Of a DNA stretch of 64,000 nt, positions 3,112 through 19,954 are shown piece by piece. Made by a program: the position numbers and the translations under genes. A model generated the notes under the pieces. The model saw only the letters and a list, made by a program, of their open reading frames with translations. It was not told the origin of the DNA and made no database searches. This stretch comes from a virus (lineage: Duplodnaviria; Heunggongvirae; Uroviricota; Caudoviricetes), in IMG/VR virus record IMGVR_UViG_3300021400_000141, positions 321,354 to 385,353 of that record. One strand, given 5' to 3'. Position 1 is the first letter of the stretch; the number at the start of each line of letters is the position of its first letter.

Positions 3112-3114
3112 ACC

Positions 3115-3642: not shown

Positions 3643-3655
3643 ATCGGAGGTCTAT

Positions 3656-3949: not shown

Positions 3950-3953
3950 TTGG

Positions 3954-4184
3954 GTGCTGCAAATGATTGCTATGAAAATGAAGAAAAAAGTAATAATCGA
4001 GTTGGACATCGATGCTTACAGCAGCTTTGGTGTCCCAGAAGAAAACCTTATTTCCCTCGTAATGGCAGACCTGAAATGGTCGATACAGGACCGTCTGCAT
4101 AATATGGAAGGCGATGTTGGTTGTGCTAACGACGGCAAGTCTTTCGGGTACAAATTTAAGCCAAACGATTTCAGTTTGGAGTAG
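3954..4184 (+). CDS. hypothetical protein
   Basis: 76-aa ORF in tiling; start uncertain. Confidence 0.35.
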   Translation: MLQMIAMKMKKKVIIELDIDAYSSFGVPEENLISLVMADLKWSIQDRLHNMEGDVGCANDGKSFGYKFKPNDFSLE

Positions 4185-4192
4185 GGTTCTTA

Positions 4193-4468
4193 ATGAAAAA
4201 TTCGCAAAAAGATAGATACTACAACAGGCTGCAAAAATGTCTGAAGGAAATCGATAAATTTACTCCGATGAGATATATGGAATGGGTTGCCCATCGTGAT
4301 AAAGTCTTGAAAGAGTATGGATTTACGATGGACGATTATTACAGGATGTGCAGCCTGACTGAATCCAACACTAAGGTCAGATGCGACGAAAGCGTTAGGA
4401 CATTCAAGGAAAAACAAAAGATTAAGCTTGACAAGAAGCTGGATGAATGTGAAATTCAAGGAGATTGA
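4193..4468 (+). CDS. hypothetical protein
   Basis: 91-aa ORF in tiling. Confidence 0.45.
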   Translation: MKNSQKDRYYNRLQKCLKEIDKFTPMRYMEWVAHRDKVLKEYGFTMDDYYRMCSLTESNTKVRCDESVRTFKEKQKIKLDKKLDECEIQGD

Positions 4469-4469
4469 T

Positions 4470-4793
4470 ATGTTGAACCAAGTAGATTGTTCACCCGATA
4501 CCCCCGTAATCGAAGCTGCTGCCGAACGAATGGCGCTCAAAGAAATGGATGACAAGAAGTTCCGTGATACGAACGAGATGTCTGGTTTCCATACTGGGTA
4601 CATGAAGGGGTTCCTCGAAGGGGCCGAGTTCATGCGCTCGTTCTATCGTTATAGGGACAATCGTGATAGACTGGCCAGGGTTGAGCGTGAAAAGAAGAAG
4701 CAAGCCGCTGCTGCGAATGACGACAACCGTATCAAGCCTGCCGAACCTATTACTGATGCTATTACTGATGTGTCTCCTTATCTTCGGAGGTAA
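4470..4793 (+). CDS. hypothetical protein
   Basis: ATG after RBS caaggag; tiles with neighbours. Confidence 0.45.
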   Translation: MLNQVDCSPDTPVIEAAAERMALKEMDDKKFRDTNEMSGFHTGYMKGFLEGAEFMRSFYRYRDNRDRLARVEREKKKQAAAANDDNRIKPAEPITDAITDVSPYLRR

Positions 4794-4795
4794 CT

Positions 4796-5230
4796 GTGGA
4801 CGAAGCATTTGTACGTAAAATTTTCAATCAGCTCTTCAACCATTACAACAATATCGATGCCGTTGCTGAATATATAGGAATCCACCAGGAATGTGCGGAA
4901 GACATGGTAAGAAGCGGGCACAAACTAGATATCATTGATGTACGACTGGAACCGATGATAGATAGGATAGTGGTCCACTACACGGTGGCTACCGACGGGG
5001 TAATAAGATACCGTACCTCCTATCCTTTTCGGTGGGAAGTATTTCTTGGTATAGTAGACGGGTTCGACAGGACGGGCTACAACCCATGGACGCAGCAACG
5101 GTATGAATATTCCAGCATCGTCAATGTGTTTGGACGCATGCGGAAGCTGAAAGGCCCGCCCCTCCGAGAAATGTCTCCAGATGATGAGAATAGGATATTG
5201 AACAGACAGGATTCGCACGGGGGTGTCTAA
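4796..5230 (+). CDS. hypothetical protein (GTG start)
   Basis: GTG start 7 nt after cggagg; 144 aa. Confidence 0.45.
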   Translation: MDEAFVRKIFNQLFNHYNNIDAVAEYIGIHQECAEDMVRSGHKLDIIDVRLEPMIDRIVVHYTVATDGVIRYRTSYPFRWEVFLGIVDGFDRTGYNPWTQQRYEYSSIVNVFGRMRKLKGPPLREMSPDDENRILNRQDSHGGV

Positions 5231-5301
5231 CTAATCATCTTGCAAGATTCTAAAAAATATATTATATTTGACAACGAAATAGTTATCAAATAGAGGATAC
5301 A

Positions 5302-5478
5302 ATGAAAAGCATTTACGATATCAAGTCCACTGGCAAATTCGTTCCTACACAGACATTCCGTGAAAAGAAGGCGGGTGTCAACCTTGGTCGCATGGAAAGT
5401 TCCATGAAGAAGCTGAACAAGGGACTGGCTAAGATGGCAAAGGAAAGGCATGAAGCCCGTTCAAAGAAGGGGGCATAA
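5302..5478 (+). CDS. small basic protein (58 aa)
   Basis: below the ORF-track cutoff; RBS agaggat then ATG; its stop overlaps the next ATG (taATG). Confidence 0.4.
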   Translation: MKSIYDIKSTGKFVPTQTFREKKAGVNLGRMESSMKKLNKGLAKMAKERHEARSKKGA

Positions 5479-5780
5479 TGAAAACGATTTTTGCCATCCT
5501 TTGTGTTGCAATGCTAGCCTTCGCCAGTGAAGACAATATCCAGTACGGAGTGCGTACGGGAAGCGTTAAGACTGAAGGTGGCTACATCGGCACTTACCAG
5601 TTCAATGACACCACGTTGACAATCCGTTTTACCAATCATGCTGTAAGCCATGTTCGCTACGACTTTGTGAACCACAAGCTGTACACCAATGGGAATGGAG
5701 TTGCAAAGGACGGAACCGTTGTGCCGCCTCCTCCGCAGCCCGAAGAGAATATGCAGGAAATCCGCCAATGGAACCCATAG
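5478..5780 (+). CDS. small secreted protein
   Basis: N-terminal signal peptide MKTIFAILCVAMLAFASE. Confidence 0.5.
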   Translation: MKTIFAILCVAMLAFASEDNIQYGVRTGSVKTEGGYIGTYQFNDTTLTIRFTNHAVSHVRYDFVNHKLYTNGNGVAKDGTVVPPPPQPEENMQEIRQWNP

Positions 5781-6121
5781 TTGTATTTGAGGAAGACTGT
5801 ACAGACCTTGCCGAGGACTACGACTACGGCGAGGAAGAGTATGTTGAACCAGAGTTCATCACTCTTCCTGACGTGAACTATGTCCCATCAAGGGTTAGGG
5901 AAATAGTTCACGACGGAACTCCACCGCTTGGGTTTCGTCTGGTTCTTCCTCCCCGTCCTTATGAGAAACCGTCCGATATTCCTCTGACTGAAAAGAAATT
6001 CATTTACATCAGAAGGGATACGGAAGAGGTTAGGATTTGTGACGTTCTTCCAATAGTAGGATACAACATAACAGACCATTGCTTGGACCTTTCAACTGAA
6101 TACGTGAGAAGACAATCATGA
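5768..6121 (+). CDS. acidic hypothetical protein
   Basis: D/E-rich N-terminal half (EEDCTDLAEDYDYGEEEYVEPEF); tiles with neighbours. Confidence 0.45.
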   Translation: MEPIVVFEEDCTDLAEDYDYGEEEYVEPEFITLPDVNYVPSRVREIVHDGTPPLGFRLVLPPRPYEKPSDIPLTEKKFIYIRRDTEEVRICDVLPIVGYNITDHCLDLSTEYVRRQS

Positions 6122-7020
6122 AAATCATAGACAACTTTGAACAAATCAGCAAGCTCCTGCGTTTCGAACGCACGGGTGATTGCTACTACCTCGAAATCCT
6201 GCTTCGGGCGAAGGACGGCAACGACGTTCGCAAGAAGCACAACAACGGTGATAGAACCATCCGTGAAATCCTCCTGAACCACGAAGGCCATCTGGAGGAA
6301 CTCCGTGAGGAAATCATCAAGCTGTGCCACGAGTTCAACGCCCGTGCCTACATCCGTCTCAACCGCAGGAACTATGCTGCAATCGGTTGGCACTATGTAA
6401 GGGAATTCATTTACCGTGCCAAGGAGAACGATACAAAGCAGTTCGAGCATCATCAGCAGGACCCGCAGCGTAACCCGTTCCGTGCCATGAGTACGGCCTG
6501 TGGAAAGGTCAATTCCGAACCGAGGGCCACTACAACATGGCTTATCGACTTGGATGACTGCACGATGGATAGCCCTATCGTAAAGGCGTTTGAAGCCGAG
6601 CTGCAGAAACCTGGTATGAACATGAAGATTGCTCCCGAGGACATGATTGTTGCCAAGATTCCTTCCAGAAGCGGGATTCACATGATTGTCCATCCGTTCA
6701 ACGCTGCGAACTACATCGAGGAAGGCGTGGTTGCTTGCCCGACAGAAGAGTTCCGCATGATGCATGCCGTCTTGACATGGGCTGTCGAGAACAAGCTTCC
6801 CATCGCCACGCTGAATACTTTCCTTCGTGGAGAGGAACAGATTGAAGAATCCGACGACCACCCGTACTTGACTGACGAGGATGTGTATGTCATGGAAAGG
6901 AATTACCGCAAGGTTAACGACAAGATTGATATCGCTGGCTTCAACATGACTGTTGGTGAATTTACTGCGGGTGTCCACAAGGACAATCCGACCATCTTGT
7001 ATGCGGAGGCTGACGAATGA
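6118..7020 (+). CDS. hypothetical protein, translationally coupled to glf
   Basis: 300-aa ORF; its stop overlaps the glf ATG (ATGA); no motif recognised. Confidence 0.5.
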   Translation: MKIIDNFEQISKLLRFERTGDCYYLEILLRAKDGNDVRKKHNNGDRTIREILLNHEGHLEELREEIIKLCHEFNARAYIRLNRRNYAAIGWHYVREFIYRAKENDTKQFEHHQQDPQRNPFRAMSTACGKVNSEPRATTTWLIDLDDCTMDSPIVKAFEAELQKPGMNMKIAPEDMIVAKIPSRSGIHMIVHPFNAANYIEEGVVACPTEEFRMMHAVLTWAVENKLPIATLNTFLRGEEQIEESDDHPYLTDEDVYVMERNYRKVNDKIDIAGFNMTVGEFTAGVHKDNPTILYAEADE

Positions 7021-8270
7021 AGTATTTGTTAGTTGGTGCTGGCCTGTATAATGCCGTAATCTATCAACGACTGGTGCATGAATTCAACGTGCATCCGCTT
7101 GACATCACCATCATCGAGAACCGTTCCCATGTTGGTGGGAACTGCTATACGGAAAATGTTGATGGAATCACCGTTCACAAGTACGGTGCCCATATCTTCC
7201 ATACGTCCGATGAAGAGGTATGGAAGTTCGCCAACCGTTTCGGCTCGTTCAACAATTTCGTCAACAGTCCGATTGCCGTGTATTTCAACGAAAAGACTGG
7301 CCAGTCAGAAACGTACAACCTTCCGTTCAACATGAACACGTTTGTACGTCTGTTTGAACGTGAACTGGCGGTGAAGAGGGTTACCCCGTATATTGTCAAG
7401 GAGGCTATCCAAGGTGAAATCGAGGCGTACAAGCTTTCCCATCCTTTTGATACTCCGAGAAATCTTGAGGAGCAGGCTATCTCGCTTGTTGGCACGACCT
7501 TGTACGAAAAGCTTATCAAGCACTATACGGAAAAGCAGTGGGGAAGACCGTGTACTGAACTTGACCCGTCGATAATCAAGCGGTTGCCGCTTAGGTTCAC
7601 CTACGACAACAACTACTTCAATGATGTCCATCAGGGCATTCCCGAGGAAGGCTACACAAAGTGGATTGAAAACATGTTCGAAGGACACGATATTCACTTT
7701 GATGAAAACTTCCTGAGCGACACATACCGCCACGAGGTTCATGGGATGGACAAGTTCGACCAGGTATTTTACTCTGGTGACGTATCCGCGTTGCTGAACG
7801 CAGTCATGAACTACGACAAGCTGGTGGCCGGGATGGTGCACGAGGATGGACTGGACGACTTTTGGCTTGACTGGCGTTCGTTGAAGTTTGCCGAGAAGGA
7901 ATACCCTACTGAAAACTGGCAGGGCAATGCCGTTGTCAACTATACGTCTGGTGAAGTCGGCTACACGCGCTCAATTGAGCATAAGTTCTTCAACCGCGAG
8001 AAGATGGACGATGACAAGACTATCGTGACGTTCGAGTATCCAGTGAAGTACAGGCTCGGGGATGAGCGATACTACCCTCTTGCTAGCGAGAAGGAGAAGT
8101 ATCAGAAGATTCTAGGCTACTTGCCGAAAAAGATTGTTCCAACTGGCCGCCTAGGCTTGTACGAATACATGGATATGGACGACGTTATTAGAGCTTCACT
8201 GTCAGATACAAGGATTCGGGTTGAGCCTGTGATTGAACCAGGTTGCATCTTCTCTACTGCATCAGTTTAA
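7017..8270 (+). CDS. glf: UDP-galactopyranose mutase
   Basis: N-terminal FAD fold VGAGLYNAV...GGNCYTE, then YGAHIFHT, NLPFNMNTF, LEEQAISLVG, YTEKQWGR and RFTYDNNYF; a near-collinear match to enterobacterial Glf as recalled from memory. Confidence 0.9.
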   Translation: MKYLLVGAGLYNAVIYQRLVHEFNVHPLDITIIENRSHVGGNCYTENVDGITVHKYGAHIFHTSDEEVWKFANRFGSFNNFVNSPIAVYFNEKTGQSETYNLPFNMNTFVRLFERELAVKRVTPYIVKEAIQGEIEAYKLSHPFDTPRNLEEQAISLVGTTLYEKLIKHYTEKQWGRPCTELDPSIIKRLPLRFTYDNNYFNDVHQGIPEEGYTKWIENMFEGHDIHFDENFLSDTYRHEVHGMDKFDQVFYSGDVSALLNAVMNYDKLVAGMVHEDGLDDFWLDWRSLKFAEKEYPTENWQGNAVVNYTSGEVGYTRSIEHKFFNREKMDDDKTIVTFEYPVKYRLGDERYYPLASEKEKYQKILGYLPKKIVPTGRLGLYEYMDMDDVIRASLSDTRIRVEPVIEPGCIFSTASV

Positions 8271-8294
8271 TTACACTCAATAAAGGACGAAAAA

Positions 8295-8603
8295 ATGAAT
8301 ATATTTTTCAGTATAACTAATGTTGCTTTTATTCATGTATACAAATTCCAAGCAAAATCTACAAATAAAGATGATGCTTTAAAAGAATTGTTTAAATATA
8401 ATAAAGAATTACTTAAACATGCAGAATATCCTGGCGACAAAAACATCCGACGTGTAATAGCTACGGAAAAGAACGAGCTGAGTGAATCTGAAGCAAGTTG
8501 GTTGCATGTTTCTAGTCTCCGATGGGATGTTGACCGCCCAGATTCTGCAATCTTTGATTCATATAGAGAAGGTTATCCTGATTATTTGCTTGAACAGAGC
8601 TAA
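8295..8603 (+). CDS. hypothetical protein (AT-rich moron-like)
   Basis: 102-aa ORF; codon composition clearly more AT-rich than the flanks. Confidence 0.4.
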   Translation: MNIFFSITNVAFIHVYKFQAKSTNKDDALKELFKYNKELLKHAEYPGDKNIRRVIATEKNELSESEASWLHVSSLRWDVDRPDSAIFDSYREGYPDYLLEQS

Positions 8604-8621
8604 GAAAAACATCTCCTTAAC

Positions 8622-8652
8622 GAAAAAACCGCCTTAATCGGCGGTCTTTTTT
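8622..8652. terminator. bidirectional rho-independent terminator
   Basis: hairpin accgcc-ttaatc-ggcggt flanked by an A6 run upstream and a T6 run downstream. Confidence 0.6.
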
Positions 8653-8857
8653 AATTGTGATGATGGTGAACGGGATATTTTTCTTTATGCCTGTGAGACC
8701 CGAGAAGGAATGAATGCCAAGATGATTCAATAGACTTCACCTTCTTCGATGTCTTGTACATGAATATCACGAGGATTACAAGCAATAGAAAAGAAATCGA
8801 TGTGATTATTGCCGAATAGACTAATAGTTCGTGCGTGTATATGTAAATAGTGTTCAT
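8651..8857 (-). CDS. small membrane protein (AT-rich)
   Basis: 68 aa with a hydrophobic stretch AIITSISFLLLVILVIFM; convergent with 8295-8603. Confidence 0.35.
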   Translation of the reverse strand: MNTIYIYTHELLVYSAIITSISFLLLVILVIFMYKTSKKVKSIESSWHSFLLGSHRHKEKYPVHHHHN

Positions 8858-8924
8858 TGTATTTCCTTTTGTGTTTGATTTACTGTAATAATATAGTTAA
8901 TTTTACGAAAATGTCAAGTATTTA

Positions 8925-8954
8925 CTTGACAAGACGGATTTAATATGCTATATT
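8925..8954 (+). promoter_or_regulatory. sigma70-type promoter (TTGACA, 18 nt, TATATT)
   Basis: cTTGACAagacggatttaatatgcTATATTg upstream of queC. Confidence 0.5.
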
Positions 8955-8985
8955 GATGAAAAACAACATCAACAAAAGGTCTCAT

Positions 8986-9933
8986 ATGACAAAAGCAAAA
9001 AACACCAGAACTCTCAAAACGCTTAAACATATCGCTGACAACTTCGGGAAGGATAAGCGCAAGTCTGAAAAGAAGGAACATCTTCTTGACAAGATTATGG
9101 CCAAGAAGGAGGAAGAACTTGTGGATGTTTTGGACGAAGGCGAGTCTCCGATGGAAGACGTTATGCCCGAAAAGGAAGCTGAACCCGCACATGAAGTTGC
9201 CCCTAAGCCGCTTGACGTAAGGCCGATTACCAAGAAATTTGACGGGATTAAGCAGAATGTTGTTGTTTTCAGTGGTGGCTTTGACAGCACCTTGATTTTG
9301 GTTGACCTGCTTGAAAAGGGCATTAAACCCAGGTTGCTTACTTTCCAGTGCAGACAGTTTGGTGAAAACCGTCATTTCACTTCTGAAATTGCAGCCCAGG
9401 AAAAAATCCTCGAATATCTCGCCAAGAAGTACGACTACGAGCCGAACCGTGATTACATGAAGCTTGAAGGCGACATGATTGGTTGGACTGGTGCTGAACC
9501 GTCCCTGTTCCAGCAGCCATTTATGCTTTCGATGGTTTCTATGGGTGGCCGTAACAACGCTTGCTACCACTTCGGATATCATCGTGGCGACGATTTCTGG
9601 CACAGTTCTCACAATATACTTGCCGCACAGGAACACCTGCTTGCAGTGGCCGGCCAGAAGAACATCATGTTCAGCTTCCCCCTGCAGTTCTTGACCAAGG
9701 CTGACATTATCCGTAACCTGAACCATTACCACTTCCCGACCGAACTCTGCACTTTCTGCTATTCGCCGACCTACAAGGGACGTTGCGGACATTGCGTTGC
9801 TTGCCAGACGTACGAAAAGGCGATGTCCGAAATTGTGCATCTGTCTGGAACCTATGAAGGAATGTCCAACCAGTTGTACTATCCTGATGGGTTCATCGAA
9901 CAGACGAAGCACCGTTCAATGTGGGATGATTAA
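8986..9933 (+). CDS. queC: 7-cyano-7-deazaguanine synthase QueC-like (PP-loop ATPase) with a K/E-rich N-terminal extension
   Basis: PP-loop VVVFSGGFDSTLIL; C-terminal Zn site CGHCVACQ; start set at the ATG after aaaagg because the upstream TTG/ATG lies inside the promoter -10 region. Confidence 0.75.
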   Translation: MTKAKNTRTLKTLKHIADNFGKDKRKSEKKEHLLDKIMAKKEEELVDVLDEGESPMEDVMPEKEAEPAHEVAPKPLDVRPITKKFDGIKQNVVVFSGGFDSTLILVDLLEKGIKPRLLTFQCRQFGENRHFTSEIAAQEKILEYLAKKYDYEPNRDYMKLEGDMIGWTGAEPSLFQQPFMLSMVSMGGRNNACYHFGYHRGDDFWHSSHNILAAQEHLLAVAGQKNIMFSFPLQFLTKADIIRNLNHYHFPTELCTFCYSPTYKGRCGHCVACQTYEKAMSEIVHLSGTYEGMSNQLYYPDGFIEQTKHRSMWDD

Positions 9934-9951
9934 CAACAAAGAGAATTTGAA

Positions 9952-10914
9952 ATGGAAAAGAAACTAAATACATATACAAACGGAAACCACAAGGTGACCA
10001 TCTATTCCGATGGCACCAAAATCAAAGAAACAATCGACCCCAAGGCCGACCATTTCACTTATGATTTTCCAGAGAACTTCGACATTAAAATCACCGACCA
10101 GTGCGATGGCGGTTGCGTATATTGTCACGAAAACTCCACTGTGAATGGAAAGCATGGAGACCTTCGTGCTTTGGAACCGATGATTGCAACCCTGCATGCT
10201 GGTACGGAATGCGCTGTGGGCGGGGGCAACGCATTGGCTCACCCTGACCTCGTATGGTTCCTAGAACGCTTGAAGGAACAGGGTGTCATTGCGAACATCA
10301 CCATCAACCAGCGTCACCTGAGACCGTACAAGGACCTCATCTGCAAGATTGTAGGTGAAGGCCTTGTTCACGGAATTGGCATTTCGCTGACCGATGCAAG
10401 CAACAAGGACGACTTTGCGTTTATCGACACTCTCGGAAACAATGTTGTCATCCACACGATTGCGGGCATCCTTTCGGAAAACGATGTTGCCCCCCTGTTT
10501 GGCCGCAAGATTCTTATCCTTGGCTACAAGGACTTGCGTCGTGGTCACACTTTGCTCGAAAAGCAGTCCGAAGAAATCAAGGCGAACATCAAGTGGTTGC
10601 AGAGCCTGTTGGTACGGATTGGTTCAACCAATATCAATCCGTTCAAGGTAATCTCGTTTGACTGCCTCGGTATCGAACAGCTTAACCCGAAGGCGTTGCT
10701 CAACATTTCCGACGCCCGTTATGATACCCTGTTCCAGGGTTCTGACACGGATGTTATGGACGCTGACGGAAACATTGCCTGTGCGACAATGTACATCGAC
10801 GTTCCCAACATGCAGGTTGCCCGTATGAGCACAGCCGCTTTGGACAAGCGTTATCCGTTCACTGGAAAAGAAAACATTCACGACCTTCTTCAGATTACTA
10901 CACAAGGATGGTAA
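9952..10914 (+). CDS. radical SAM protein, QueE-like (7-carboxy-7-deazaguanine synthase family)
   Basis: CDGGCVYC (Cx3Cx2C) followed by a GGGNALAHP segment resembling QueE SGGNP; longer than typical QueE. Confidence 0.5.
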   Translation: MEKKLNTYTNGNHKVTIYSDGTKIKETIDPKADHFTYDFPENFDIKITDQCDGGCVYCHENSTVNGKHGDLRALEPMIATLHAGTECAVGGGNALAHPDLVWFLERLKEQGVIANITINQRHLRPYKDLICKIVGEGLVHGIGISLTDASNKDDFAFIDTLGNNVVIHTIAGILSENDVAPLFGRKILILGYKDLRRGHTLLEKQSEEIKANIKWLQSLLVRIGSTNINPFKVISFDCLGIEQLNPKALLNISDARYDTLFQGSDTDVMDADGNIACATMYIDVPNMQVARMSTAALDKRYPFTGKENIHDLLQITTQGW

Positions 10915-10916: not shown

Positions 10917-11360
10917 ATGAAAACGATAAGACAATCAGTCTTTGAAACCAACAGTTCTAGCTGTCATTCGTTCAGCATCACGAATGAACGCAAGTTTGAC
11001 CCGAAGCGTTATCCCCGCATCAGGGTAAGCGGTAGCGGTGAGTATGGTTGGGACGGCCCCGACGTGGAAACTCCCGACGACCACCTAGACTACGCTCTCG
11101 TGGCGGGCAAGTATATCTTCGGCGAAGGCCTCCGTGACAGGCTCCCTGCTATTCGGGAATACTTCGAGGAACATGGCGTTATCGTCGATTTCGACTTCAA
11201 GGATGAACCGTCTGGCTACATCGACCACCAGAGCGCACCTGCCGCAGACGAAGACAGCCGTCACATTGGCAACATGCTTGACGACCCAGAGGAGCTGTTC
11301 AATTTCGTGTTCAGTGCCTCTGTAATCAAGATTCTTAACGACAACGATTCAATTTGGTAA
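10917..11360 (+). CDS. paralog family protein with N-terminus MKTIRxxVFETNSSSxH (member 1)
   Basis: MKTIRQSVFETNSSSCHSF; RBS aagga; the upstream ATG at 10908 lies inside the previous gene. Confidence 0.6.
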   Translation: MKTIRQSVFETNSSSCHSFSITNERKFDPKRYPRIRVSGSGEYGWDGPDVETPDDHLDYALVAGKYIFGEGLRDRLPAIREYFEEHGVIVDFDFKDEPSGYIDHQSAPAADEDSRHIGNMLDDPEELFNFVFSASVIKILNDNDSIW

Positions 11361-11364
11361 TGCT

Positions 11365-12078
11365 ATGAGAACAATCAGAATGAACGTGTTCGAAACCAAC
11401 TCGTCGTCCGAGCATGCTTTCAGTTATCCTAAGGGAACGGAACCTGCCCTACGCGACAAGTCGGAGTTCCCGCTGCCTGACGAGAACGGATTGCTCGAAA
11501 TCGAGCTGGATACTTTCTGGCAGTCTGGCAACCCGAAGTGCTACACTCACAATGTCAAGCGGATTATCCAGTATCTTGCCGCACATTCTGTATATTCCGT
11601 TCTTACAGAATGGAGAATTGACGGAGACAAGGGCGTTGTCTACAAGGTGCGGAAGGATATCAGGGAAAAGAACCATAAGGATTTCCTTGACCTGCTCAAT
11701 GGAGTGTATCAGGAGTTCGGTCTTCCCGAGATAAAGGACTACCGTTGCTATGCATTGACAGTGGATGGCGACAAGGTTGTCATCGATGGGGATGAACCGC
11801 AGGATTACAGGAACTGCGAGTTCGACCCTGCCGACATGGACCGTGACGAATACGATGCCATGGTAGCTAGGTTCCATGAGGATAGCGACTATCCCGAGTG
11901 CCCTAAGCTGGCCCATTACATTGGCATCTCTGGTAATTGCCTTACGGGAGACTCTTTCGCTGATGCGATGTCGTACTTTGGTCCAGAGGATTGGAGGGAC
12001 GACCTTGCGGGCAAGAAATACGACATGCCTCGTGACCTTCTCAGGAAACAAATGTCATTAACTTTCTGGCATAGCTAA
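11365..12078 (+). CDS. paralog family protein with N-terminus MKTIRxxVFETNSSSxH (member 2)
   Basis: MRTIRMNVFETNSSSEHAF; C-terminal region unrelated to member 1. Confidence 0.6.
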   Translation: MRTIRMNVFETNSSSEHAFSYPKGTEPALRDKSEFPLPDENGLLEIELDTFWQSGNPKCYTHNVKRIIQYLAAHSVYSVLTEWRIDGDKGVVYKVRKDIREKNHKDFLDLLNGVYQEFGLPEIKDYRCYALTVDGDKVVIDGDEPQDYRNCEFDPADMDRDEYDAMVARFHEDSDYPECPKLAHYIGISGNCLTGDSFADAMSYFGPEDWRDDLAGKKYDMPRDLLRKQMSLTFWHS

Positions 12079-12089
12079 AAGAGGAGAAA

Positions 12090-12827
12090 ATGAAGAAAAT
12101 TCTATTCGTATTATTGTTCTTGTTCTCGATGGCATCCGCTATCGAGATACCGCCGACACCGAAAAACACATTTGTGTACGACGGTGCTGGCATCATGTCC
12201 GCAAACGAGGTGTACCAGTTCAATGCAATCGCCGCTGACCTTGCAAAGAACGCAAACTTCGGTCTTGCCTTGGCCACATTCAAGTCGATTGACGGTCAGG
12301 ACCCCGTTGAATTCAGTTTGAAGGTTGCCCAGAAGTGGGCGATTTGCAGCAAGGATTCCAACGAGGGTGTCCTAATCTATGTCGTAATGGAGCCGCACCT
12401 GAGAGGCGTGCAGGTTGGCTACGGTTCGGAAGGCTATCTTCCCGATGTCCTTGTGGAACACATGCAGGAAGTCTCTCTTATCCCCGCATTGCAACAGGGT
12501 AAGGGAGGTCAGGGTGCCATCAAGCTTGCCAGCATGATTGCACAGAAGGTGCAGGAAGAGAAGAAGATTGCTCTGTCTGCAACACTCGATACGGCACAGC
12601 TCGCTCCTGCCGAAGGAGACCATCTCAAAGGGTGGCAGAAGGGTCTGATTATCTTCATTATCATCGCAGTTTTCATCCTGTTGGGCATCATCGAGGCGGT
12701 CACCGACATTCCGTGTTTGAGTGGTTTGCTTCTCATTCTTTCCTGCCTTGGTAAAGGCGGTGGAGGTGGTGGCCGTGGTTTCGGTGGAGGCGGATTCGGC
12801 GGTGGCGGAAGTCACGGTGGCTGGTAG
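12090..12827 (+). CDS. TPM-domain (YgcG-like) membrane protein
   Basis: signal peptide, TPM-like domain, TM helix GLIIFIIIAVFILLGII, Gly-rich C-terminus GGGGGGRGFGGGGFGGGGSHGGW. Confidence 0.6.
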   Translation: MKKILFVLLFLFSMASAIEIPPTPKNTFVYDGAGIMSANEVYQFNAIAADLAKNANFGLALATFKSIDGQDPVEFSLKVAQKWAICSKDSNEGVLIYVVMEPHLRGVQVGYGSEGYLPDVLVEHMQEVSLIPALQQGKGGQGAIKLASMIAQKVQEEKKIALSATLDTAQLAPAEGDHLKGWQKGLIIFIIIAVFILLGIIEAVTDIPCLSGLLLILSCLGKGGGGGGRGFGGGGFGGGGSHGGW

Positions 12828-12829
12828 CC

Positions 12830-12858
12830 TTGACAAGAATTAAATTAAATACTATATT
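12830..12858 (+). promoter_or_regulatory. sigma70-type promoter (TTGACA, 17 nt, TATATT)
   Basis: cTTGACAagaattaaattaaatacTATATTtt upstream of lemA. Confidence 0.5.
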
Positions 12859-12893
12859 TTAACCAAAACATTAAAACAAAGAGGTAAATAACC

Positions 12894-13490
12894 ATGTCTA
12901 CGGGCAAAATCATCCTTATCGTTCTCGCTGTTCTCGCATTCATCGGCGGAGCAACGCTTATCGGACAGTTCAACGGCATCCGCACCCTTGAAAACGGTGT
13001 GCAGATGAGCTGGGCCAATGTCGAAAACCAGTATCAGCGTCGTTACGACCTTATCCCGAACATCGTCGAATCGGTGAAGGGTGAGGCAAACTTTGAAAAG
13101 AGCACGCTCACCGAAGTCATCGAAGCACGCAGCCGCATGGGTGGCGTGATGAAGATGGATGAAAGCATGCTTGGCGACGAACGTGCAATGAAGCGCTTCC
13201 AGGAAGCTCAGAACAGCCTCGGTGGTGCATTGCAGCGTCTCATGATGCTTACTGAAAACTATCCCAACTTGAAGGCTAATGCCGCTTTCCGAGACTTGCG
13301 TGTTGAACTTGAAGGATGCGAAAACCGTATCGCCGAAGCAAGGCGTCAGTTCAACAAGTCTGTCAACGACTTGAACAACAAGGTAAGAACTTTCCCTGGC
13401 GTTCTCGTTGCTGGTATCGCAGGCGTGACCCCGAAGGTTCCGTTCTCCGCAGTGACTGGTGCTGATGTAGCACCGACCGTGAAGTTCTAA
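12894..13490 (+). CDS. lemA: LemA family protein
   Basis: N-terminal TM helix, then QYQRRYDLIPNIVESVKG, LTEVIEARSRM and RQFNKSVNDLNNKVRTFPGVLVAGIAG, the typical LemA signature. Confidence 0.8.
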   Translation: MSTGKIILIVLAVLAFIGGATLIGQFNGIRTLENGVQMSWANVENQYQRRYDLIPNIVESVKGEANFEKSTLTEVIEARSRMGGVMKMDESMLGDERAMKRFQEAQNSLGGALQRLMMLTENYPNLKANAAFRDLRVELEGCENRIAEARRQFNKSVNDLNNKVRTFPGVLVAGIAGVTPKVPFSAVTGADVAPTVKF

Positions 13491-13509
13491 TTTATTTAGA
13501 CTTTATCAA

Positions 13510-13540
13510 AGCGGATGGTGTGAAACTATCCGCTTTTTAT
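13510..13540 (+). terminator. rho-independent terminator
   Basis: agcggat ... atccgct hairpin followed by TTTTT. Confidence 0.6.
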
Positions 13541-13553
13541 CTTAGAGGATATT

Positions 13554-14036
13554 ATGAAAACAATTAGATTAGGGGTATTTGAAACCAATTCTTCCTCGGC
13601 TCATGTGATGACTTATACCCAGAAGGACAAATGGGAAAGGTTCGTTGCAGGAGACCCTAACCTGATTTGGCTTCGTTACAACCCGATGGTTGATAATACT
13701 CCGTATGACAAGTGTGATAACATTGTCGAAGTCAAGGACTATGCAAAATACCTACGTGAGCATTATCCTGACGACTTTGGCGAGTTGTCGTTGGAGTTTA
13801 TCGAAACCTTTATACGGATTACCGTAAATCATAAAACCTCTGGTGGAAATCCAATCAGTGAGTTGCTCTATAAATTAGAGGACGACCACAAGGCAAGCAA
13901 CTATCAGGAACTGAAGGACCTCTCTGCCGACTTTACCGAAGTGGGTGACTCCGAATGGGACCGTTCCGAAGTCAAGGAAGTTGTCGAAGGTGACAAGACC
14001 TTCGTGAAAGCCCGTGCCGTATGGTTCGATGGTTAA
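13554..14036 (+). CDS. paralog family protein with N-terminus MKTIRxxVFETNSSSxH (member 3)
   Basis: MKTIRLGVFETNSSSAHVM; RBS agagga. Confidence 0.6.
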   Translation: MKTIRLGVFETNSSSAHVMTYTQKDKWERFVAGDPNLIWLRYNPMVDNTPYDKCDNIVEVKDYAKYLREHYPDDFGELSLEFIETFIRITVNHKTSGGNPISELLYKLEDDHKASNYQELKDLSADFTEVGDSEWDRSEVKEVVEGDKTFVKARAVWFDG

Positions 14037-14047: not shown

Positions 14048-14593
14048 ATGAGTCTCATCGACAGATTGTGGGAAGGTGTATGTGAAGGTGGGCCGTCTAT
14101 CCTAGCTTGTCATGAACGGATAATCGGCGGAATGGTCTATGCCTTTAAGAAGGCGTCTGAAACTGAAATAACTTTGGACGTATATTACGGAAATGACCAC
14201 TACGATTTTGGTGTGGTGTTCAGGTCGGTTGTAAATGACAAGGAGCACTCCCCGTGTGTGACCATGAAGTACCCACCGAAGGAAAAATACGAGTTCATCC
14301 ATGTTCAGGATGCTGTTGGAATGATTGGAACATCATTGCTTGGTGACTACAAGGAATGGAGTGATGATTCCATTAAACAGTGGGTTGAAAGCATGATTGA
14401 TGAGTACGGGAAGCTTGCCTCTTGGAGAATATGGGTTTCCAAGAAGTTCAAGGAACTGGAATCATCCCTGCTTGAACCTGACTGGAATATCGTAGCGGCA
14501 ATCACTAAGGAGATAAAAGCTCATTCCGACCTGATATTCAAACATGGACATGTCACATGTGAGGAAAGTCCCGAAGACGAGAGAGAGGGATAA
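14048..14593 (+). CDS. hypothetical protein immediately upstream of cas3
   Basis: RBS ggaggt; its stop lies 4 nt before the cas3 ATG, so probably co-transcribed. Confidence 0.5.
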   Translation: MSLIDRLWEGVCEGGPSILACHERIIGGMVYAFKKASETEITLDVYYGNDHYDFGVVFRSVVNDKEHSPCVTMKYPPKEKYEFIHVQDAVGMIGTSLLGDYKEWSDDSIKQWVESMIDEYGKLASWRIWVSKKFKELESSLLEPDWNIVAAITKEIKAHSDLIFKHGHVTCEESPEDEREG

Positions 14594-14597
14594 AAGC

Positions 14598-16838
14598 ATG
14601 AACCCGAACGACTTATTGGCGAAAAGTGATGGCACTACATTGATAGCTCATTCCAGAGCAGTAGCTGACATGGCAAAGAGAATTGCTGAAACACTTGGCT
14701 TCGATAGTGTGTTAACCGCACTATGCTATGTGGCCGGGCTTTTGCATGATATCGGCAAAGCAATATCACCTTTTCAGGAAATACTGCGTGAAAATGAGCA
14801 TGGGCCTGGTAAATTGAGCGACGATTGCAATGCTCGTCACAGTGCAGTAAGCGGATGGTTTATGGCTAACCATGCAGCAACGTTCGATAAGATGGTTCCT
14901 GGTGTGAATGGCAGAGCTAGTGAAATCTTGTGCCGTGCCGTTACATGGCACCACAAGCCATATTTTCCTGTTGAGGAAAGTCGGTTTGCGTACGATGAAC
15001 AGTTCGATGCAGAAATCAAGTCGTTTGTTGATGCACTCGTTGATAACCTTGATTGGAGCATTAGTTCTGACGATGATTTTGATTTTTCTGGTGGAGATTT
15101 TTCCTATTTCTATACAAGAAATCTTTCTGGTAAAATCAATTCTCGAATTCATGCTGTGAGGTCGGTAGTCATTCGTGCTGACTATCTTGTAAGTGGAGGT
15201 GTTTCCGAATACTCGATAAGTAAACTTGCACCTATTGATATTGATTCTATCGCATGCCCGATTGATTTCAATGCAGAGCGATTTGTATTTCAGCGAAACG
15301 AAATTGCAAAGAAAGCAATGGAATCTGGCAAGAAAACTGTTGTGATAAATGCACCCGCAGGTTTTGGAAAAACTATTATTGGTCTGCTTGCAGGACTTCA
15401 TCGAGGTGAAAAGATTTACTGGGTTGTTCCAAGAAACGTTATTGCCGAAGAAGTGTATCGTTCTATTTCGGATTTGCTGTCGATGTTGAATGTATCGGAA
15501 ACATATTCGTTGAACATGATTTTTGGCGGCAAGGTTCAGCTTGGCCCAGAAAATGCCGACATTACAGTAACTAACATTGATGCTATCTTGCAGCCGATGG
15601 GTCAACATGGAAATATGGGTTTGCAGTGTGATATGCTGAGTGGAACAATGATATTTGACGAATATCATGAACTGGTAGGAAATAGCCCGATGTGGTCGGC
15701 ATTTCTTATCCTCATGGCTGCAAGAATGGAGGCGAACGGTAGAAATATCCTCGTTTCGGCAACACCGTTAGATATCATGTCGTGTTTGAAAGTGAACCCT
15801 GATGATGTTCTGTATCTTCCAGGTAAGAACATCCATTACCAAGCACAGCATTCAGTTCCATACCATATCGAAACTGCTGACAGCATGCCCTCCTTGGTTA
15901 GTGGAGATAGCTTCGCTATCAGCAACTGCATTTCACGTGTGCAGAAAGTACAGTGTGGAATTATGTTTCATAGCAAGTATACTGACGAAGACAAAAACGG
16001 CATCATATCCCAATTATTGAATTCGTTCGGAAAGGGAAAGACCAATGTAGTCGATGGGGTATCAGCAGGCCCGATTTTGAGCACTTCGCTTGACCTATCG
16101 TGTACACATTTGTATGAAAGTGTATGCAGTCCTATGGATTCCATGCAGCGAATTGGGCGGTGTAACCGCTTTGGAAACAAAAGTGGATGCTCGGTAACCT
16201 TCGTGACTGGAAGCGTTCCAGGTGAACGAGATTATGTGGATATGAAATTTACGACGGAGCTTCGTTCAGAATGGTGTGACACTATCCGTCGGGAATTCAA
16301 TAAAAAAGATATTACTCTTGATGAAATGTATCGTTGCTACGATAAGTTCATGGAAGAAAATGCTGCCCGCATTAAAAGGTGGATGGTTGGTCTGCAACAA
16401 GAGAGCATTAACTGCCTCGTTACAAGCTGTGCCCCATGTGTCTTTGAAGTTGCTTTGCCGAAAAAGAACAAAGGCAAAAGCGGTGGTACTATACGAAACC
16501 CAGAACCAAATATGTACTACATAGTCCCATCTGCCGATGAGAAGACCTACTATGGGCCTTTCAGTATCGACATTGCCACGGCAAACGGGCCGAAGTATGG
16601 TAGAATATTCAGACAGGTGAACAACTTAACGGAATACGAAAAGGCCAAGCAGGCATCTCCTGCTCTTGTGAACGGAACGACAGAATATCTCTCTGGCGGA
16701 ACCCGTAAGAAACGGTGGTATAAGGAGAATGCAGACAAGTTGGCTAGAAACTCGGAAAGCCCGTTTGTCGTATCTGCTAGGTACATGACATACGACTCGT
16801 TCAATGGAGTTGTATTCAACTCGAATATGGAAGACTAA
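14598..16838 (+). CDS. cas3: Cas3 HD-nuclease/helicase (no Cas2 fusion)
   Basis: N-terminal HD motifs (LIAHSRAV, LLHDIGKA); helicase Walker A INAPAGFGKT, DExH box MIFDEYHE, SAT-like LVSATPL, motif VI QRIGRCNRFG. Confidence 0.85.
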   Translation: MNPNDLLAKSDGTTLIAHSRAVADMAKRIAETLGFDSVLTALCYVAGLLHDIGKAISPFQEILRENEHGPGKLSDDCNARHSAVSGWFMANHAATFDKMVPGVNGRASEILCRAVTWHHKPYFPVEESRFAYDEQFDAEIKSFVDALVDNLDWSISSDDDFDFSGGDFSYFYTRNLSGKINSRIHAVRSVVIRADYLVSGGVSEYSISKLAPIDIDSIACPIDFNAERFVFQRNEIAKKAMESGKKTVVINAPAGFGKTIIGLLAGLHRGEKIYWVVPRNVIAEEVYRSISDLLSMLNVSETYSLNMIFGGKVQLGPENADITVTNIDAILQPMGQHGNMGLQCDMLSGTMIFDEYHELVGNSPMWSAFLILMAARMEANGRNILVSATPLDIMSCLKVNPDDVLYLPGKNIHYQAQHSVPYHIETADSMPSLVSGDSFAISNCISRVQKVQCGIMFHSKYTDEDKNGIISQLLNSFGKGKTNVVDGVSAGPILSTSLDLSCTHLYESVCSPMDSMQRIGRCNRFGNKSGCSVTFVTGSVPGERDYVDMKFTTELRSEWCDTIRREFNKKDITLDEMYRCYDKFMEENAARIKRWMVGLQQESINCLVTSCAPCVFEVALPKKNKGKSGGTIRNPEPNMYYIVPSADEKTYYGPFSIDIATANGPKYGRIFRQVNNLTEYEKAKQASPALVNGTTEYLSGGTRKKRWYKENADKLARNSESPFVVSARYMTYDSFNGVVFNSNMED

Positions 16839-16876
16839 ATAAAGTATTTTGTAAATATAATTTTACATAATACGAC

Positions 16877-16904
16877 TTACATTCATGATTGAATTAACTA
16901 TATT
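16877..16904 (+). promoter_or_regulatory. possible internal promoter (TTACAT, 16 nt, TATATT)
   Basis: cTTACATtcatgattgaattaacTATATTtaat in the 98-bp AT-rich gap between cas3 and the next gene. Confidence 0.3.
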
Positions 16905-16936
16905 TAATATCAAATCAAACACAAAAGGAAATAAAT

Positions 16937-17965
16937 ATGATTAAACAGATTCCAACAATCAAACTTCATGTCACGTTCAAGGGTCAGGGAATAGTCAACT
17001 ATGACGGCAAAGACCAGAAGCAGGTTATTTTGGACACCAAAGCAATTACACTTCCTCGTGATAATCAAGGGAAAGTTCGTGATAACCTTAAAATTGCCAA
17101 GGCCACGTATGCCATTGATGGTGATGGAAACGTAAAACGCTCTGTAAAGGTGTCTTCAGATTGTATTCGTCAGGCCATTTTCAGATTAAAACATAACCCG
17201 AACATTGTTTTTAGCCCAGTATTGTTTAACGACTGGATTTCATCAAAGACAGCGCTAGTGAGAGGATATTTTTTTCCAAAAGATGGGGGAAATGCGGCTA
17301 GCCGAAAGAGCCCTCTGACCGTGCTTGATGCACTAGAAGTAAGTGGGCAGATTTCCACGTTTAACGTTCATAGTAACAGCGGTGCTCGTACCGACAATAG
17401 TCTGTACTATGTGGAAGAGATTGGGGAAACCCGTTTCGAAAACGACATGTATATCGACCTTTCTGAACTTAAGCATATCGTGTTATCTGACACATACGGT
17501 AGAAACAGTGTGTTTTCTGACGGTGAAGAATCCCTTGTTGCAAAGCTCCGTGAAAAGTACGGTGTAGTCACAACAGGGTTTTTCCGCATGGATGGAGAAA
17601 CTGTGGAGGTTCCTGAATACGGGGCGGAAATCTCTGATGAAGCAGTTGTGTCTATTGTACGGGATTTGATTGACCATATAAAGCAGTTACATATCAACCG
17701 TTCTAACGCATACCTGGAATGTGATACCATTGAGGTGTTTGCATTCGAAAACGGTGCGTGGATTCCTATGGATGAAAAGAGCAACTTTACTGTCAAAAGT
17801 AGTTATGTTCTCATTGAAGACCAAGACGGTGCAAAAACGCTTCATGACGATGTATGTGACAAGGCAAATCAGGGACAGACTGCCCGCAAAGAAGCAAAGA
17901 AAGAAGAAGCCGCAAAGAAAGCTGCAAAGAAAGCTGCCAAAAAAGCAGCAAAGGACAATACATAG
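16937..17965 (+). CDS. putative Cascade subunit A (Cas5/Cas8-like or Cas7-like) with Lys/Ala-rich C-terminal tail
   Basis: position between cas3 and cas6; 342 aa; C-terminal AKKEEAAKKAAKKAAKKAAK; no confident motif match. Confidence 0.4.
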   Translation: MIKQIPTIKLHVTFKGQGIVNYDGKDQKQVILDTKAITLPRDNQGKVRDNLKIAKATYAIDGDGNVKRSVKVSSDCIRQAIFRLKHNPNIVFSPVLFNDWISSKTALVRGYFFPKDGGNAASRKSPLTVLDALEVSGQISTFNVHSNSGARTDNSLYYVEEIGETRFENDMYIDLSELKHIVLSDTYGRNSVFSDGEESLVAKLREKYGVVTTGFFRMDGETVEVPEYGAEISDEAVVSIVRDLIDHIKQLHINRSNAYLECDTIEVFAFENGAWIPMDEKSNFTVKSSYVLIEDQDGAKTLHDDVCDKANQGQTARKEAKKEEAAKKAAKKAAKKAAKDNT

Positions 17966-17967
17966 CC

Positions 17968-18912
17968 ATGGCGTTTCTTGACCTGACAATTAAACTTACC
18001 GATGGTAAGCGGTTTCGGGCGGCAGACCGAATTAATCAAAATAGTACAGATTTTAAGTCGAGTAATATTCATGACGATTGCCCTGATGATACAATCCCTA
18101 TAACATCTGTTGCAAACATCCTCGCTAAACTGTCTGGTCATCGTCCATGGAAGCGTAATGACATTGAACTAGGAAAGGTTCCTATTAGTTTCTCCCGTTT
18201 CATGAATATGGCAAATCGGTCTCGTGTGGAGATATTCACTGTAGGTGGAAACAAGGAACTTATGCGAAGTTCAAAGGCATCCCATTCTGGTACAAAACAA
18301 ACGTGGAAACTTAGACTTGACGGCAATCTGTTTCCTATAGTGCGTAACTTACCTACTTATGAAACCATCCAAGCAGTACTCCCTGAGGTAGACTGGAAAA
18401 ACTTGGAGGCAATGCTCATAAACCTGTTTGGCTCAGATTACCGTACCAACTTGACCTCAGGAGCGACATCTGCTGCAGCGATGATTGAGAATCTCCGTAA
18501 AGAATATCTGCGTGGCAACAAAGAGGTTATTGCATTTTGCGAATACTACAAGAATACATCGACCAAACTTCGTGATTTGCTTATTGTCCCGCTGACAACA
18601 GGTTCTCCAGTCCGAGATGGTAAAAAATACAAGGTATTCCGCATTGACAGTCCAATAGGAAAGACTTCTGTAGAAAGGCTTTTACATAACAAGACAAATA
18701 CCCACGGCATTCTCATGGCTCAGGTAGTTTCTGGTGTTTTGCATGTCAAAATTGCCGAGAGTGAATTGGAGATGTTTCGTAACGGTCCAGGATTTGCCAC
18801 ATTCCTAGACGGAGGTGTGGCAGAAATTGAAACGCTTGACCTTGACTACTGGCAAAGTGAAACCGATAGCTTACCGAATCCGTTTATATCAAAAACAACA
18901 AAACAGGAGTAA
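17968..18912 (+). CDS. putative Cascade subunit B (Cas7-like or Cas5-like)
   Basis: 314 aa; starts 2 nt after the stop of the preceding gene; position matches the I-F variant layout cas5fv-cas7fv-cas6f. Confidence 0.4.
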   Translation: MAFLDLTIKLTDGKRFRAADRINQNSTDFKSSNIHDDCPDDTIPITSVANILAKLSGHRPWKRNDIELGKVPISFSRFMNMANRSRVEIFTVGGNKELMRSSKASHSGTKQTWKLRLDGNLFPIVRNLPTYETIQAVLPEVDWKNLEAMLINLFGSDYRTNLTSGATSAAAMIENLRKEYLRGNKEVIAFCEYYKNTSTKLRDLLIVPLTTGSPVRDGKKYKVFRIDSPIGKTSVERLLHNKTNTHGILMAQVVSGVLHVKIAESELEMFRNGPGFATFLDGGVAEIETLDLDYWQSETDSLPNPFISKTTKQE

Positions 18913-18917
18913 CCTAT

Positions 18918-19472
18918 ATGCGAACTGTATTCTACTGCACTATTCATCATGACCATAAGGCTACCCACAACGATATTCACAAAAAGATAACAGCCATTTA
19001 CCAACAATCCCCTGGCCCTCGTTGGTGTAGCAACGGCTCGGTTGTTGAGGTTGTTAGCGATAAAATGCCTATACGTTGCGACCAGGTTTCATCTGTTCGT
19101 GAAGTTAGTGTGCCTACTGGGTTACTTACACTATCGTTTCAGTACCCTGCAATACGTCGTAGCAATGATGGTAAGAAGGAGCATGTAAAGATATACGATT
19201 CCCCTGCTATTGCAAAAAAACAAATTTCTGAGAAGGTATGCACCCGTCTGAGCGAACTTGGAATGTCTGATGTTCGTATAGTGGAATATGTACACAACGT
19301 ATGTCGTCTTGACTTGCATGACCGTAAGAATGGTATATCAAAAGTTCCCGTGTCGTTCATCGTTGCCAAGTGCGTTTGTGCAGATGAGGATAAAGTACGA
19401 CATCTTATGGTGAACGGAATAGGAAAGTTCCGCTTCGCAGGCCTCGGGATGATTTATGTAACAGAAGGGTAA
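18918..19472 (+). CDS. cas6: Cas6-family CRISPR repeat endoribonuclease (Cas6f-sized)
   Basis: 184 aa; C-terminal glycine-rich loop GIGKFRFAGLG (GhGxxxxxGhG); its stop codon directly abuts the first CRISPR repeat. Confidence 0.7.
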   Translation: MRTVFYCTIHHDHKATHNDIHKKITAIYQQSPGPRWCSNGSVVEVVSDKMPIRCDQVSSVREVSVPTGLLTLSFQYPAIRRSNDGKKEHVKIYDSPAIAKKQISEKVCTRLSELGMSDVRIVEYVHNVCRLDLHDRKNGISKVPVSFIVAKCVCADEDKVRHLMVNGIGKFRFAGLGMIYVTEG

Positions 19473-19925
19473 GTTTCCCGTGCATACGGGAATTGAAATG
19501 AATACAAAGCCCTATCTTATTCATTGAAAATATGTTTCCCGTGGGAGCGGGAATTGAAACTTTGCACTCGTCCCTCGTAATGGGTTTTCAAAATGTTTCC
19601 CGTGAATACGGGAATTGAAAGAGCGCACTTGTTCCTCGGAATGGGTTTATACAATGTTTCCCGTGTGTTCGGGAATTGAAACGAATACGATACCTGGCTA
19701 CGACAGAGCTACAATGTTTCCCGTGTTTGCGGGAATTGAAAGAGATACGTGTGAGGGTTTCCCCATTCTCCAGTAGGTTTCCCGTGTTTGCGGGAATTGA
19801 AACTCATATTGGACCTCGCCGTTTACGATGTCGAAAGGTTTCCCGTGTGTGCGGGAATTGAAACGATACATTGACAGACCCGAAACATTGGGACGAATGT
19901 TTCCCGTTTATGCGGGAATTAAAAA
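19473..19925 (+). CRISPR. CRISPR array, 8 repeats and 7 spacers, type I-F-like hairpin repeat
   Basis: repeats (ATGTTTCCCGTG-NNNN-CGGGAATTGAAAC) start at 19473, 19534, 19595, 19656, 19716, 19777, 19838 and 19899 with 60-61 bp periodicity; 6-bp stem TTCCCG/CGGGAA with a variable 6-nt loop; unique 32-34 nt spacers; last repeat degenerate (..CGGGAATTAAAAA). Confidence 0.9.
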
Positions 19926-19954
19926 AGCCCACACCATTAAGGTGTTGGCTTTCT
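19921..19954. terminator. bidirectional rho-independent terminator shared by the CRISPR array and clpX
   Basis: aaaaaa-agcccacacc-attaa-ggtgttggct-ttct; 9/10 bp stem; the A6 on plus gives a T6 for the minus-strand clpX transcript. Confidence 0.65.

Follow-up and report, generated by a model that had tools for sequence, protein, structure and literature searches.

A conserved N-terminal peptide on dissimilar phage proteins is genetically linked to a radical SAM enzyme

Four tagged reading frames beside a radical SAM gene

We analyzed a 64,000-nucleotide stretch (the window) of the Caudoviricetes genome record IMGVR_UViG_3300021400_000141, in which four open reading frames (ORFs; paralogues 1 to 4, Table 1) begin with the same 17-residue peptide, M[KR]TIRxxVFETNSSSxH (the tag), and in which the first of the four follows directly on a gene for a radical S-adenosylmethionine (radical SAM, rSAM) enzyme. 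An earlier note, made from the sequence alone, had reported the shared start of these ORFs, and we could confirm it: a back-translated pattern for the VFETN segment (GTNTTYGARACNAAY) matched the window at these four sites exclusively, while 0.03 matches were expected in shuffled sequence and at least four were reached in none of 100 shuffles. No fifth copy was found by a six-frame scan of the window, and a related 175 kb contig syntenic with it carries five copies. Conserved orthologues exist for each of the four ORFs, which are thus taken to be real genes. The start of paralogue 1 was placed by family alignments, three bases 3' of the stop codon of the radical SAM gene; the ATG chosen by the ORF lister (10908) overlaps the stop of that upstream gene.

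In a DNA alignment of the four copies, nine of the 12 invariant tag residues are encoded by two or more codons (Ser13, for example, by AGT, TCG, TCT and TCA). Because synonymous codons differ between the copies, the tag is conserved at the protein level, and the proposal that selection rather than recent duplication maintains it was borne out. Beyond residue 17, the only columns invariant among the four proteins are D28 and D144.

The product of the upstream gene belongs to the radical SAM superfamily, given a match to Pfam Radical_SAM (PF04055) of 36.1 bits against a cut-off of 29.5. It also matches phrog_16999 (E 3.8e-38) and is 40% identical to gp128 of the Microcystis phage Ma-LMM01 (E 1e-58). 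Among 11 diverse homologues, the three cysteines of the cluster motif (C51, C55 and C58) are invariant and no other cysteine is, Radical_SAM is the sole Pfam domain common to all members, and the family shares a conserved N-terminal hairpin (Y.NGN..V.I..DGTK.R). Matches of the enzyme to NCBIfam maturases fall well under their cut-offs, its weak matches include the nucleotide-acting MoaA, viperin and QueE, and no close relative with a solved structure was found (best E 6.6e-5). In one phage contig (L046, 12617-14710) the rSAM gene is split by an intein-like insertion (...TECA / CLSGNT ... LTHN / CGGGN...), which carries a LAGLIDADG_3 domain (E 4e-8) and is located exactly at the conserved GGGN motif.

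Table 1. Features of the window named in the text (positions are those of the window; aa, amino acids).
Feature	Position	Strand	Remarks
QueC-like PP-loop ATPase	8953-9933		Directly upstream of the rSAM gene; weak QatC similarity; N-terminal extension of ~100 residues
Radical SAM (rSAM) enzyme	9952-10914	+	320 aa; C51-x3-C55-x2-C58; directly upstream of paralogue 1
Paralogue 1 ("type A" body)	10917-11360	+	147 aa; tag = codons 1-17, 10917-10967
Paralogue 2	11365-12078	+	237 aa; tag 11365-11415; C-terminus ...LTFWHS
TPM-domain protein and LemA-family protein	12090-13490		Pair between tagged copies 2 and 3; TPM-domain protein with glycine-rich C-terminal tail GGGGGGRGFGGGGFGGGGSHGGW
Paralogue 3	13554-14036	+	160 aa; tag 13554-13604; C-terminus ...ARAVWFDG
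ORF of 190 aa	14021-14593		No family match; bridges tagged copy 3 and cas3, overlapping the former's end and the latter's start
Cas3 (HD and helicase)	14544-16838		Best PADLOC match Cas3fv, E 3e-53
Cas7fv-like ORF	16937-17965		
Unassigned ORF in the cas set	17968-18912		
Cas6-like ORF	18918-19472		
CRISPR array	19467-19932		8 repeats, period 61
ClpX homologue	19967-21214	-	Right after the CRISPR array
Paralogue 4	23053-23784	+	243 aa; tag 23053-23103
PnuC-like transporter and NadR-like protein (NAD salvage)	within 23851-26980		After tagged copy 4
tRNA-Leu(TAA)	25692-25768		
RtcB-type RNA ligase	25787-26980		
tRNA-Arg(CCG)	50644-50719		

The tag superfamily is genetically locked to one dedicated radical SAM enzyme

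The earlier note had suggested looking for the same tag in related phage genomes, and it proved to be present in Lak and Microcystis phages and in thousands of proteins. A profile built from the first 40 columns matched 6,603 representatives of 50%-identity clusters (E<=0.001) among 1.84 billion proteins. All but a few of the 150 matches listed begin with the motif, and since a Met directly precedes it in the exceptions, these internal cases are miscalled starts or read-through fusions of tandem genes. Two proteins (P0213, 288 aa, and P0215, 395 aa) carry two tags each, the second with a Met before it; they probably represent two tandem genes joined as one by a frameshift, a recoded stop or a true fusion. 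The superfamily consensus of the peptide is M-x-x-[IV]-R-x-x-[VT]-F-E-T-N-S-S-S-x-H, and conservation in 378 unique members taken from the fetched loci is close to complete (100% for R5 and for E, N, the first two S and H; 99% for F9; 98% for T; 96% for the third S). Of 458 tagged genes, 431 have this F as residue 9 or 10. Tagged proteins have a median length of 172 aa (5-95% range, 115-262).

A short-peptide tblastn search of 50,697 phage records detected the tag only in Lak megaphages (15 records, each with 3-5 sites) and Microcystis phages (nine records); in the same type of records, neither megablast of the tagged region nor tblastn of a "classic" member (P0299) gave a match. Overall, carriers of the tag include Lak megaphages, Microcystis myoviruses, rumen and gut megaphages, prophage-like regions in isolate genomes, contigs binned with Firmicutes, Bacteroidota and archaeal metagenome-assembled genomes (MAGs), and contigs binned with candidate phyla. 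The number of tagged copies per locus ranges from 1 to 10. Extreme local expansion of the family was seen in three related rumen phage contigs (L011, 12269-20620; L129 and L130, about 2,100-10,900), where 9-10 tandem tagged paralogues occupy ~10 kb downstream of the radical SAM gene.

Linkage between the tag and the rSAM enzyme was evident in both directions. Of 35 viral loci collected with the enzyme as the seed, 29 had a full-length match, and all but one of these 29 (28/29) have 1-9 tagged ORFs on the same strand within ~3 kb. Among six weakly matching loci of the enzyme-seeded set, four encode fusions of the two partners, which a tag pattern requiring Glu had missed. Conversely, when loci were seeded with the tag, this enzyme was found within 6-10 kb in 57 of 77 viral loci and in 60 of 78 genome or MAG loci, usually as the next gene, and it is likewise the gene next to the tagged gene in two short contigs that were fetched for other purposes. 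Clustering of all ORFs up to 5 kb from the rSAM gene (96 loci) returned only two families in more than 90 loci, namely the rSAM and tag families themselves, with the next family present in 18. Co-occurrence in the 50,697 phage records was equally tight, as the enzyme (E<=1e-46) and the tag are confined to an identical set of 24 records (15 Lak, nine Microcystis); beyond these there was one weak partial match, to a different rSAM protein in Salmonella phage Arash.

The two partners also occur as fusions. On eight jumbo-phage contigs, a single protein of 470-546 aa consists of a tagged type-A-like domain (type A being the body class of paralogue 1) followed by the hairpin and the rSAM core; in the fusion protein of locus L035, for instance, Pfam places Radical_SAM at residues 221-327. 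The N-terminal domain of the fusions reads M-x-I-x-N-V-R-L-G-[FHL]-A-T-N-S-S-S-x-H-S ... FGW ... IDHQS ... GGNDN. The tag stays at residue 1, and in all eight proteins V-F-E is replaced by G-[FHL]-A while the R and TNSSSxHS are unchanged. No free tagged paralogues were found near the fusion genes. With two-way linkage, co-occurrence in complete genomes and natural fusions, the tag superfamily is genetically locked to one dedicated rSAM enzyme.

The pairing is visible in Ma-LMM01, where a tagged protein (gp130, start MLSIQVRQGVFETNSSSTHS) is encoded two genes from gp128, which is annotated as "Fe-S oxidoreductase". Besides the same N-terminal motif (..VRQGVFETNSSSTHS), gp130 has the type-A motifs described below. 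Its family, phrog_28997 (E 5e-115 for gp130 itself), aligns with the window proteins over residues 4-24 only (E 0.0023, 0.22 and 0.011 for paralogues 1, 2 and 4, respectively); paralogue 3 gave no match to it, and none of the four proteins matches the family over its full length. What ties the window proteins to phrog_28997 is the FETNSSSxH peptide together with a nearby phrog_16999 rSAM gene. Ma-LMM01 has one tagged copy, whereas the phage of the window has four with different bodies. Neither gp128 nor gp130 has a known function, and gp128-gp130 are absent from the early and late genes named in a transcriptome study of Ma-LMM01 (PMC5780444).

Bodies behind the tag and neighboring genes

The earlier note had described the remainders of the four proteins as unrelated, which holds at the level of detection used here. 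Tagged-protein bodies separated into 36 BLAST clusters, with the four copies of the window in four different clusters, and profile-profile comparison between body classes after removal of the tag yielded nothing significant (best P 0.004-0.011, probability <=8%). Alignments of 93-154 columns produced by hhalign had suggested full-length homology between classes; these were driven by the tag, as a repeat of the comparison without it showed. The description of a conserved tag on unrelated remainders thus stands. The tag behaves as an autonomous N-terminal module: it is under selection, strictly N-terminal, and the sole element common to the body classes. Across six variable positions of the tag, paralogues of the same genome with unrelated bodies are 56% identical (521 pairs), while identity between genomes is 36% overall and 40-49% for pairs with similar bodies, in a comparison uncorrected for phylogeny. 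Identity within genomes thus exceeds that between genomes, and the tag follows the genome it is in more closely than the class of body behind it, a pattern of concerted evolution.

Type A, for which paralogue 1 has 461 full-length homologues (many from 200-440 kb contigs), is the class that most frequently adjoins the radical SAM enzyme and the class that is fused to it. Its motifs besides the tag are GEYGW, LDYAxVA, GYIDHQS and a C-terminal DNDN(H), and its invariant polar residues are W45, Y59, D103, H104, S106, N141, D142 and N143. The body of paralogue 2 belongs to a narrow family with close orthologues only, all in near relatives of the source phage, and its profile aligns with other classes over the first 25-27 residues alone. 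Paralogue 3 has a short, "type B-like" body without the DHQS and DNDN motifs. The class of paralogue 4 is marked by DFSxR, PxEKASY, GCYGH, IIQxTDE and a C-terminal WPxGG, and one of its members immediately adjoins the radical SAM gene (locus L010).

AlphaFold models of paralogues 1 and 4 are confident outside the tag (mean per-residue confidence, pLDDT, of 87.8 and 85.9), with pLDDT below 50 at residues 1-11 and 1-13, respectively, and the first strand beginning at residue 15. Both models continue strand-strand-strand and then a helix from residue 53, a weak hint of shared architecture. A Foldseek search of BFVD gave one uncharacterised Myoviridae protein as its sole match. Scans of the four proteins against Pfam, NCBIfam, PADLOC and PHROGs returned no meaningful family, a Pfam scan of 35 type-A members returned none either, and sequence and profile searches of the PDB gave no match for tagged proteins. 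The tag interpretation was to be abandoned, according to the earlier note, if the proteins matched a known enzyme with this motif as its N-terminal active site; sequence and profile searches yielded no such family. Self-processing of the Ntn-hydrolase or pyruvoyl kind was also considered and dropped as speculation, as no feature speaks in its favor.

A 101 kb contig assigned to a Bacteroidaceae MAG (sheep reticulum) matches the window almost exactly, with identities of 100% for the tag and 98.4% for the rSAM enzyme; IMG/VR contigs of 175-422 kb are further relatives. Three of the four tagged copies do lie upstream of cas genes, as previously noted, although a cas neighborhood is not general for the family. 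The genes and array at 14544-19932 make up a CRISPR-Cas set of the phage that resembles type I-F variants; it is a feature of this phage lineage and not of the tag family, and no cas1 or cas2 was seen near it. The 190-aa ORF that overlaps paralogue 3 and cas3 has an orthologue at the same place in a syntenic contig (L001, 10468-11040). The QueC-like gene upstream of the rSAM gene was considered as part of the conserved module and was ruled out by the clustering of the 96 rSAM neighborhoods. The remaining neighbors (Table 1) include genes for a TPM-domain and LemA-family pair, a ClpX homologue, NAD salvage, RNA ligation and two tRNAs.

Possible roles of the tag and their implications

Because tagged proteins are nearly always encoded beside the rSAM enzyme or fused to it, the tag is probably a way of working with that enzyme. 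We give an even chance to the proposal that each paralogue makes contact with the enzyme through the tag, which would be either a site of modification or a docking arm, with one rSAM enzyme serving one to ten tagged proteins per genome. As a modification site, the tag would act as a leader-like recognition sequence, and the enzyme would post-translationally modify the TNSSSxH stretch. As a docking arm, it would enter the rSAM protein and complete its active site, such that the paralogues would be interchangeable partner subunits. Type A is probably the core partner, given its invariant GW, DHQS and GNDN motifs, its frequent adjacency to the enzyme and its fusion to it; the fusions and the additional polar motifs of type A favor a stable enzyme-partner relationship for this class. 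The loss of VFE in the fusions is the pattern that would be expected if VFE serves docking in trans, and it would also fit a chemical role for R...TNSSSxH.

Several observations weigh against engagement of the enzyme by the tag, or against one form of it. Fusion of a substrate to its enzyme is unusual, so the fusions favor a docking arm, or consecutive enzymes of one pathway, over a modification site. The invariant polar residues E, T, N, S, S, S and H would equally resemble a catalytic or ligand-binding loop. No auxiliary-cluster motif was found in the rSAM family, nor an RRE or SPASM domain such as peptide maturases typically have. The low pLDDT of the tag may stem in part from shallow alignments (35 and 23 sequences), and the greater identity of tags within than between genomes could reflect gene conversion or lineage-specific duplication. 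About a quarter of the tag-seeded loci have no rSAM gene in the flank, several of these being second clusters on contigs whose rSAM gene is elsewhere. One clear exception to the pairing is an rSAM homologue in locus L016 (9935-10993; 39% identity to the window enzyme, with insertions) that has no tagged gene within 10 kb. Finally, the loci counted are phylogenetically non-independent, and some overlap.

Known systems offer partial parallels. Maturases of ribosomally synthesized and post-translationally modified peptides (RiPPs), such as ProcM with the prochlorosins and the rSAM enzymes with tandem precursors, are alike in the combination of an invariant N-terminal sequence with a hypervariable remainder, in the adjacency of one to ten tandem same-strand genes to a single rSAM gene, and in the covariation of tag positions within genomes. 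RiPP precursors, however, are short, whereas tagged proteins have a median of 172 residues and the two that were modelled fold confidently apart from the tag. Moreover, the invariant tag includes likely reactive residues and is not a leader alone, this rSAM family is without an RRE or a SPASM/twitch auxiliary-cluster domain, the conserved module contains neither protease nor exporter, and natural fusions exist. The pairing of sulfatases with anSME, and of glycyl-radical enzymes with their activases, also sets a dedicated rSAM enzyme beside a protein with a short invariant motif, that of sulfatases containing a Ser. Neither (C/S)xPxR nor RVxG[FWY] was found in the four sequences or in the family consensus sequences, and the present system differs further in its absence of auxiliary clusters and in the many dissimilar partners of one enzyme.

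Among the alternatives, the one with most in its favor would make the tag part of a stand-alone enzyme fold, as its catalytic or ligand-binding loop, ordered only with bound substrate, metal or phosphate. The tagged enzyme and the rSAM enzyme would then catalyze successive steps of a small-molecule or nucleotide pathway or of one for DNA modification, and the extra paralogues would be neofunctionalised or inactive copies. We consider this unlikely, although the full invariant polar set of type-A members, which persists in the fusions, speaks for it, and although it explains the fusions, for which consecutive pathway enzymes are the classical Rosetta-stone reading; the QueC-like ATPase just upstream of the rSAM gene and the weak rSAM matches to nucleotide-acting enzymes also point this way. 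Yet the tag is invariant even in bodies without DHQS, DNDN and every other type-A motif, and is therefore independent of the putative type-A active site. A catalytic loop would not need to stand at residue 1, where the tag is kept even in fusions. The 96 rSAM loci have no conserved third gene that might belong to such a pathway, and no match to an enzyme fold or family was found.

Two further explanations would leave the enzyme aside. The earlier note had proposed a capsid-targeting sequence or propeptide, by which the proteins would be sent into the prohead and the tag cut after VFE by the prohead protease. The capsid-targeting sequence of T4 internal proteins is MKTYQEFIAE, which MKTIRxxVFE resembles in length and in its hydrophobic-x-E end, and the T4 proteins are likewise diverse, present in multiple copies and headed by a short conserved peptide; variable bodies, multiple copies and the phage setting fit as well. 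In a targeting sequence of this type, though, conservation would be confined to the peptide that is removed, whereas that of the tag runs seven residues past the proposed cleavage point (T, N, S, S, S and H at 96-100%). The motif is also identical in very different types of phage, for which a single protease specificity is implausible. The universally linked gene encodes an rSAM enzyme and not a protease. No protease turned up in the conserved rSAM neighborhood, or among the ORFs that were sampled from these 64 kb of a larger genome. In the fusions, a tag of this kind would carry an enzyme of 50 kDa along into the capsid, and A takes the place of E at the cleavage position. The genes are located in accessory or replication regions. 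Taken together, this makes a capsid role scarcely credible. Slightly less improbable, but still very doubtful, is a signal for sorting or turnover that has nothing to do with the rSAM enzyme, such as a ClpX recognition sequence, a signal for non-classical export or an arm for self-assembly by strand swapping. The ClpX homologue between the third and fourth tagged copies, the flexible tag in the AlphaFold models and the extreme N-terminal position, which is typical of such signals, are in keeping with it, but ClpX is outside the conserved neighborhood of the 96 rSAM loci, and the linkage and fusions to the enzyme would be left unexplained. The peptide is polar and without a hydrophobic core, so the secretion signal that had also been suggested, whether Sec, Tat or lipoprotein, is unlikely.

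A wider proposal can be made, albeit tentatively and with the balance tipped somewhat against it: that these genes represent an unrecognised, very widespread phage system built on a universal 17-residue peptide, which hypervariable multi-copy proteins (bodies of ~100-250 residues) would present to a dedicated minimal rSAM enzyme, either as its target or as the part that completes it. At the protein level, the arrangement would amount to a leader with its maturase or to a docking arm with its catalytic engine. The enzyme may possibly install a new post-translational modification on TNSSSxH, and the variable bodies could be host-takeover or anti-defence effectors. In the searchable literature, the motif string was not found, and queries on Ma-LMM01, huge phages and a conserved N-terminal motif returned no description of the pairing of an rSAM enzyme with the tag. 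Radical SAM enzymes with dedicated protein partners or substrates are of a known kind, and we see a substantial chance that the mechanism here is a new one.

The tag marks 6,600 or more clusters (at 50% identity) of "hypothetical" proteins that are unannotated in Pfam, NCBIfam and PADLOC, and through the link to the rSAM enzyme an otherwise anonymous motif becomes a pairing open to biochemical tests. If the peptide is modified, this would be a new protein modification with a new logic of substrate recognition by rSAM enzymes; if its role is to complete the enzyme, the result would be a modular architecture of a new type, in which partner subunits are interchangeable. In either event, the pairing would provide a handle on a hypervariable, multi-copy set of phage genes, and effectors of phage counter-defence are often of such character.

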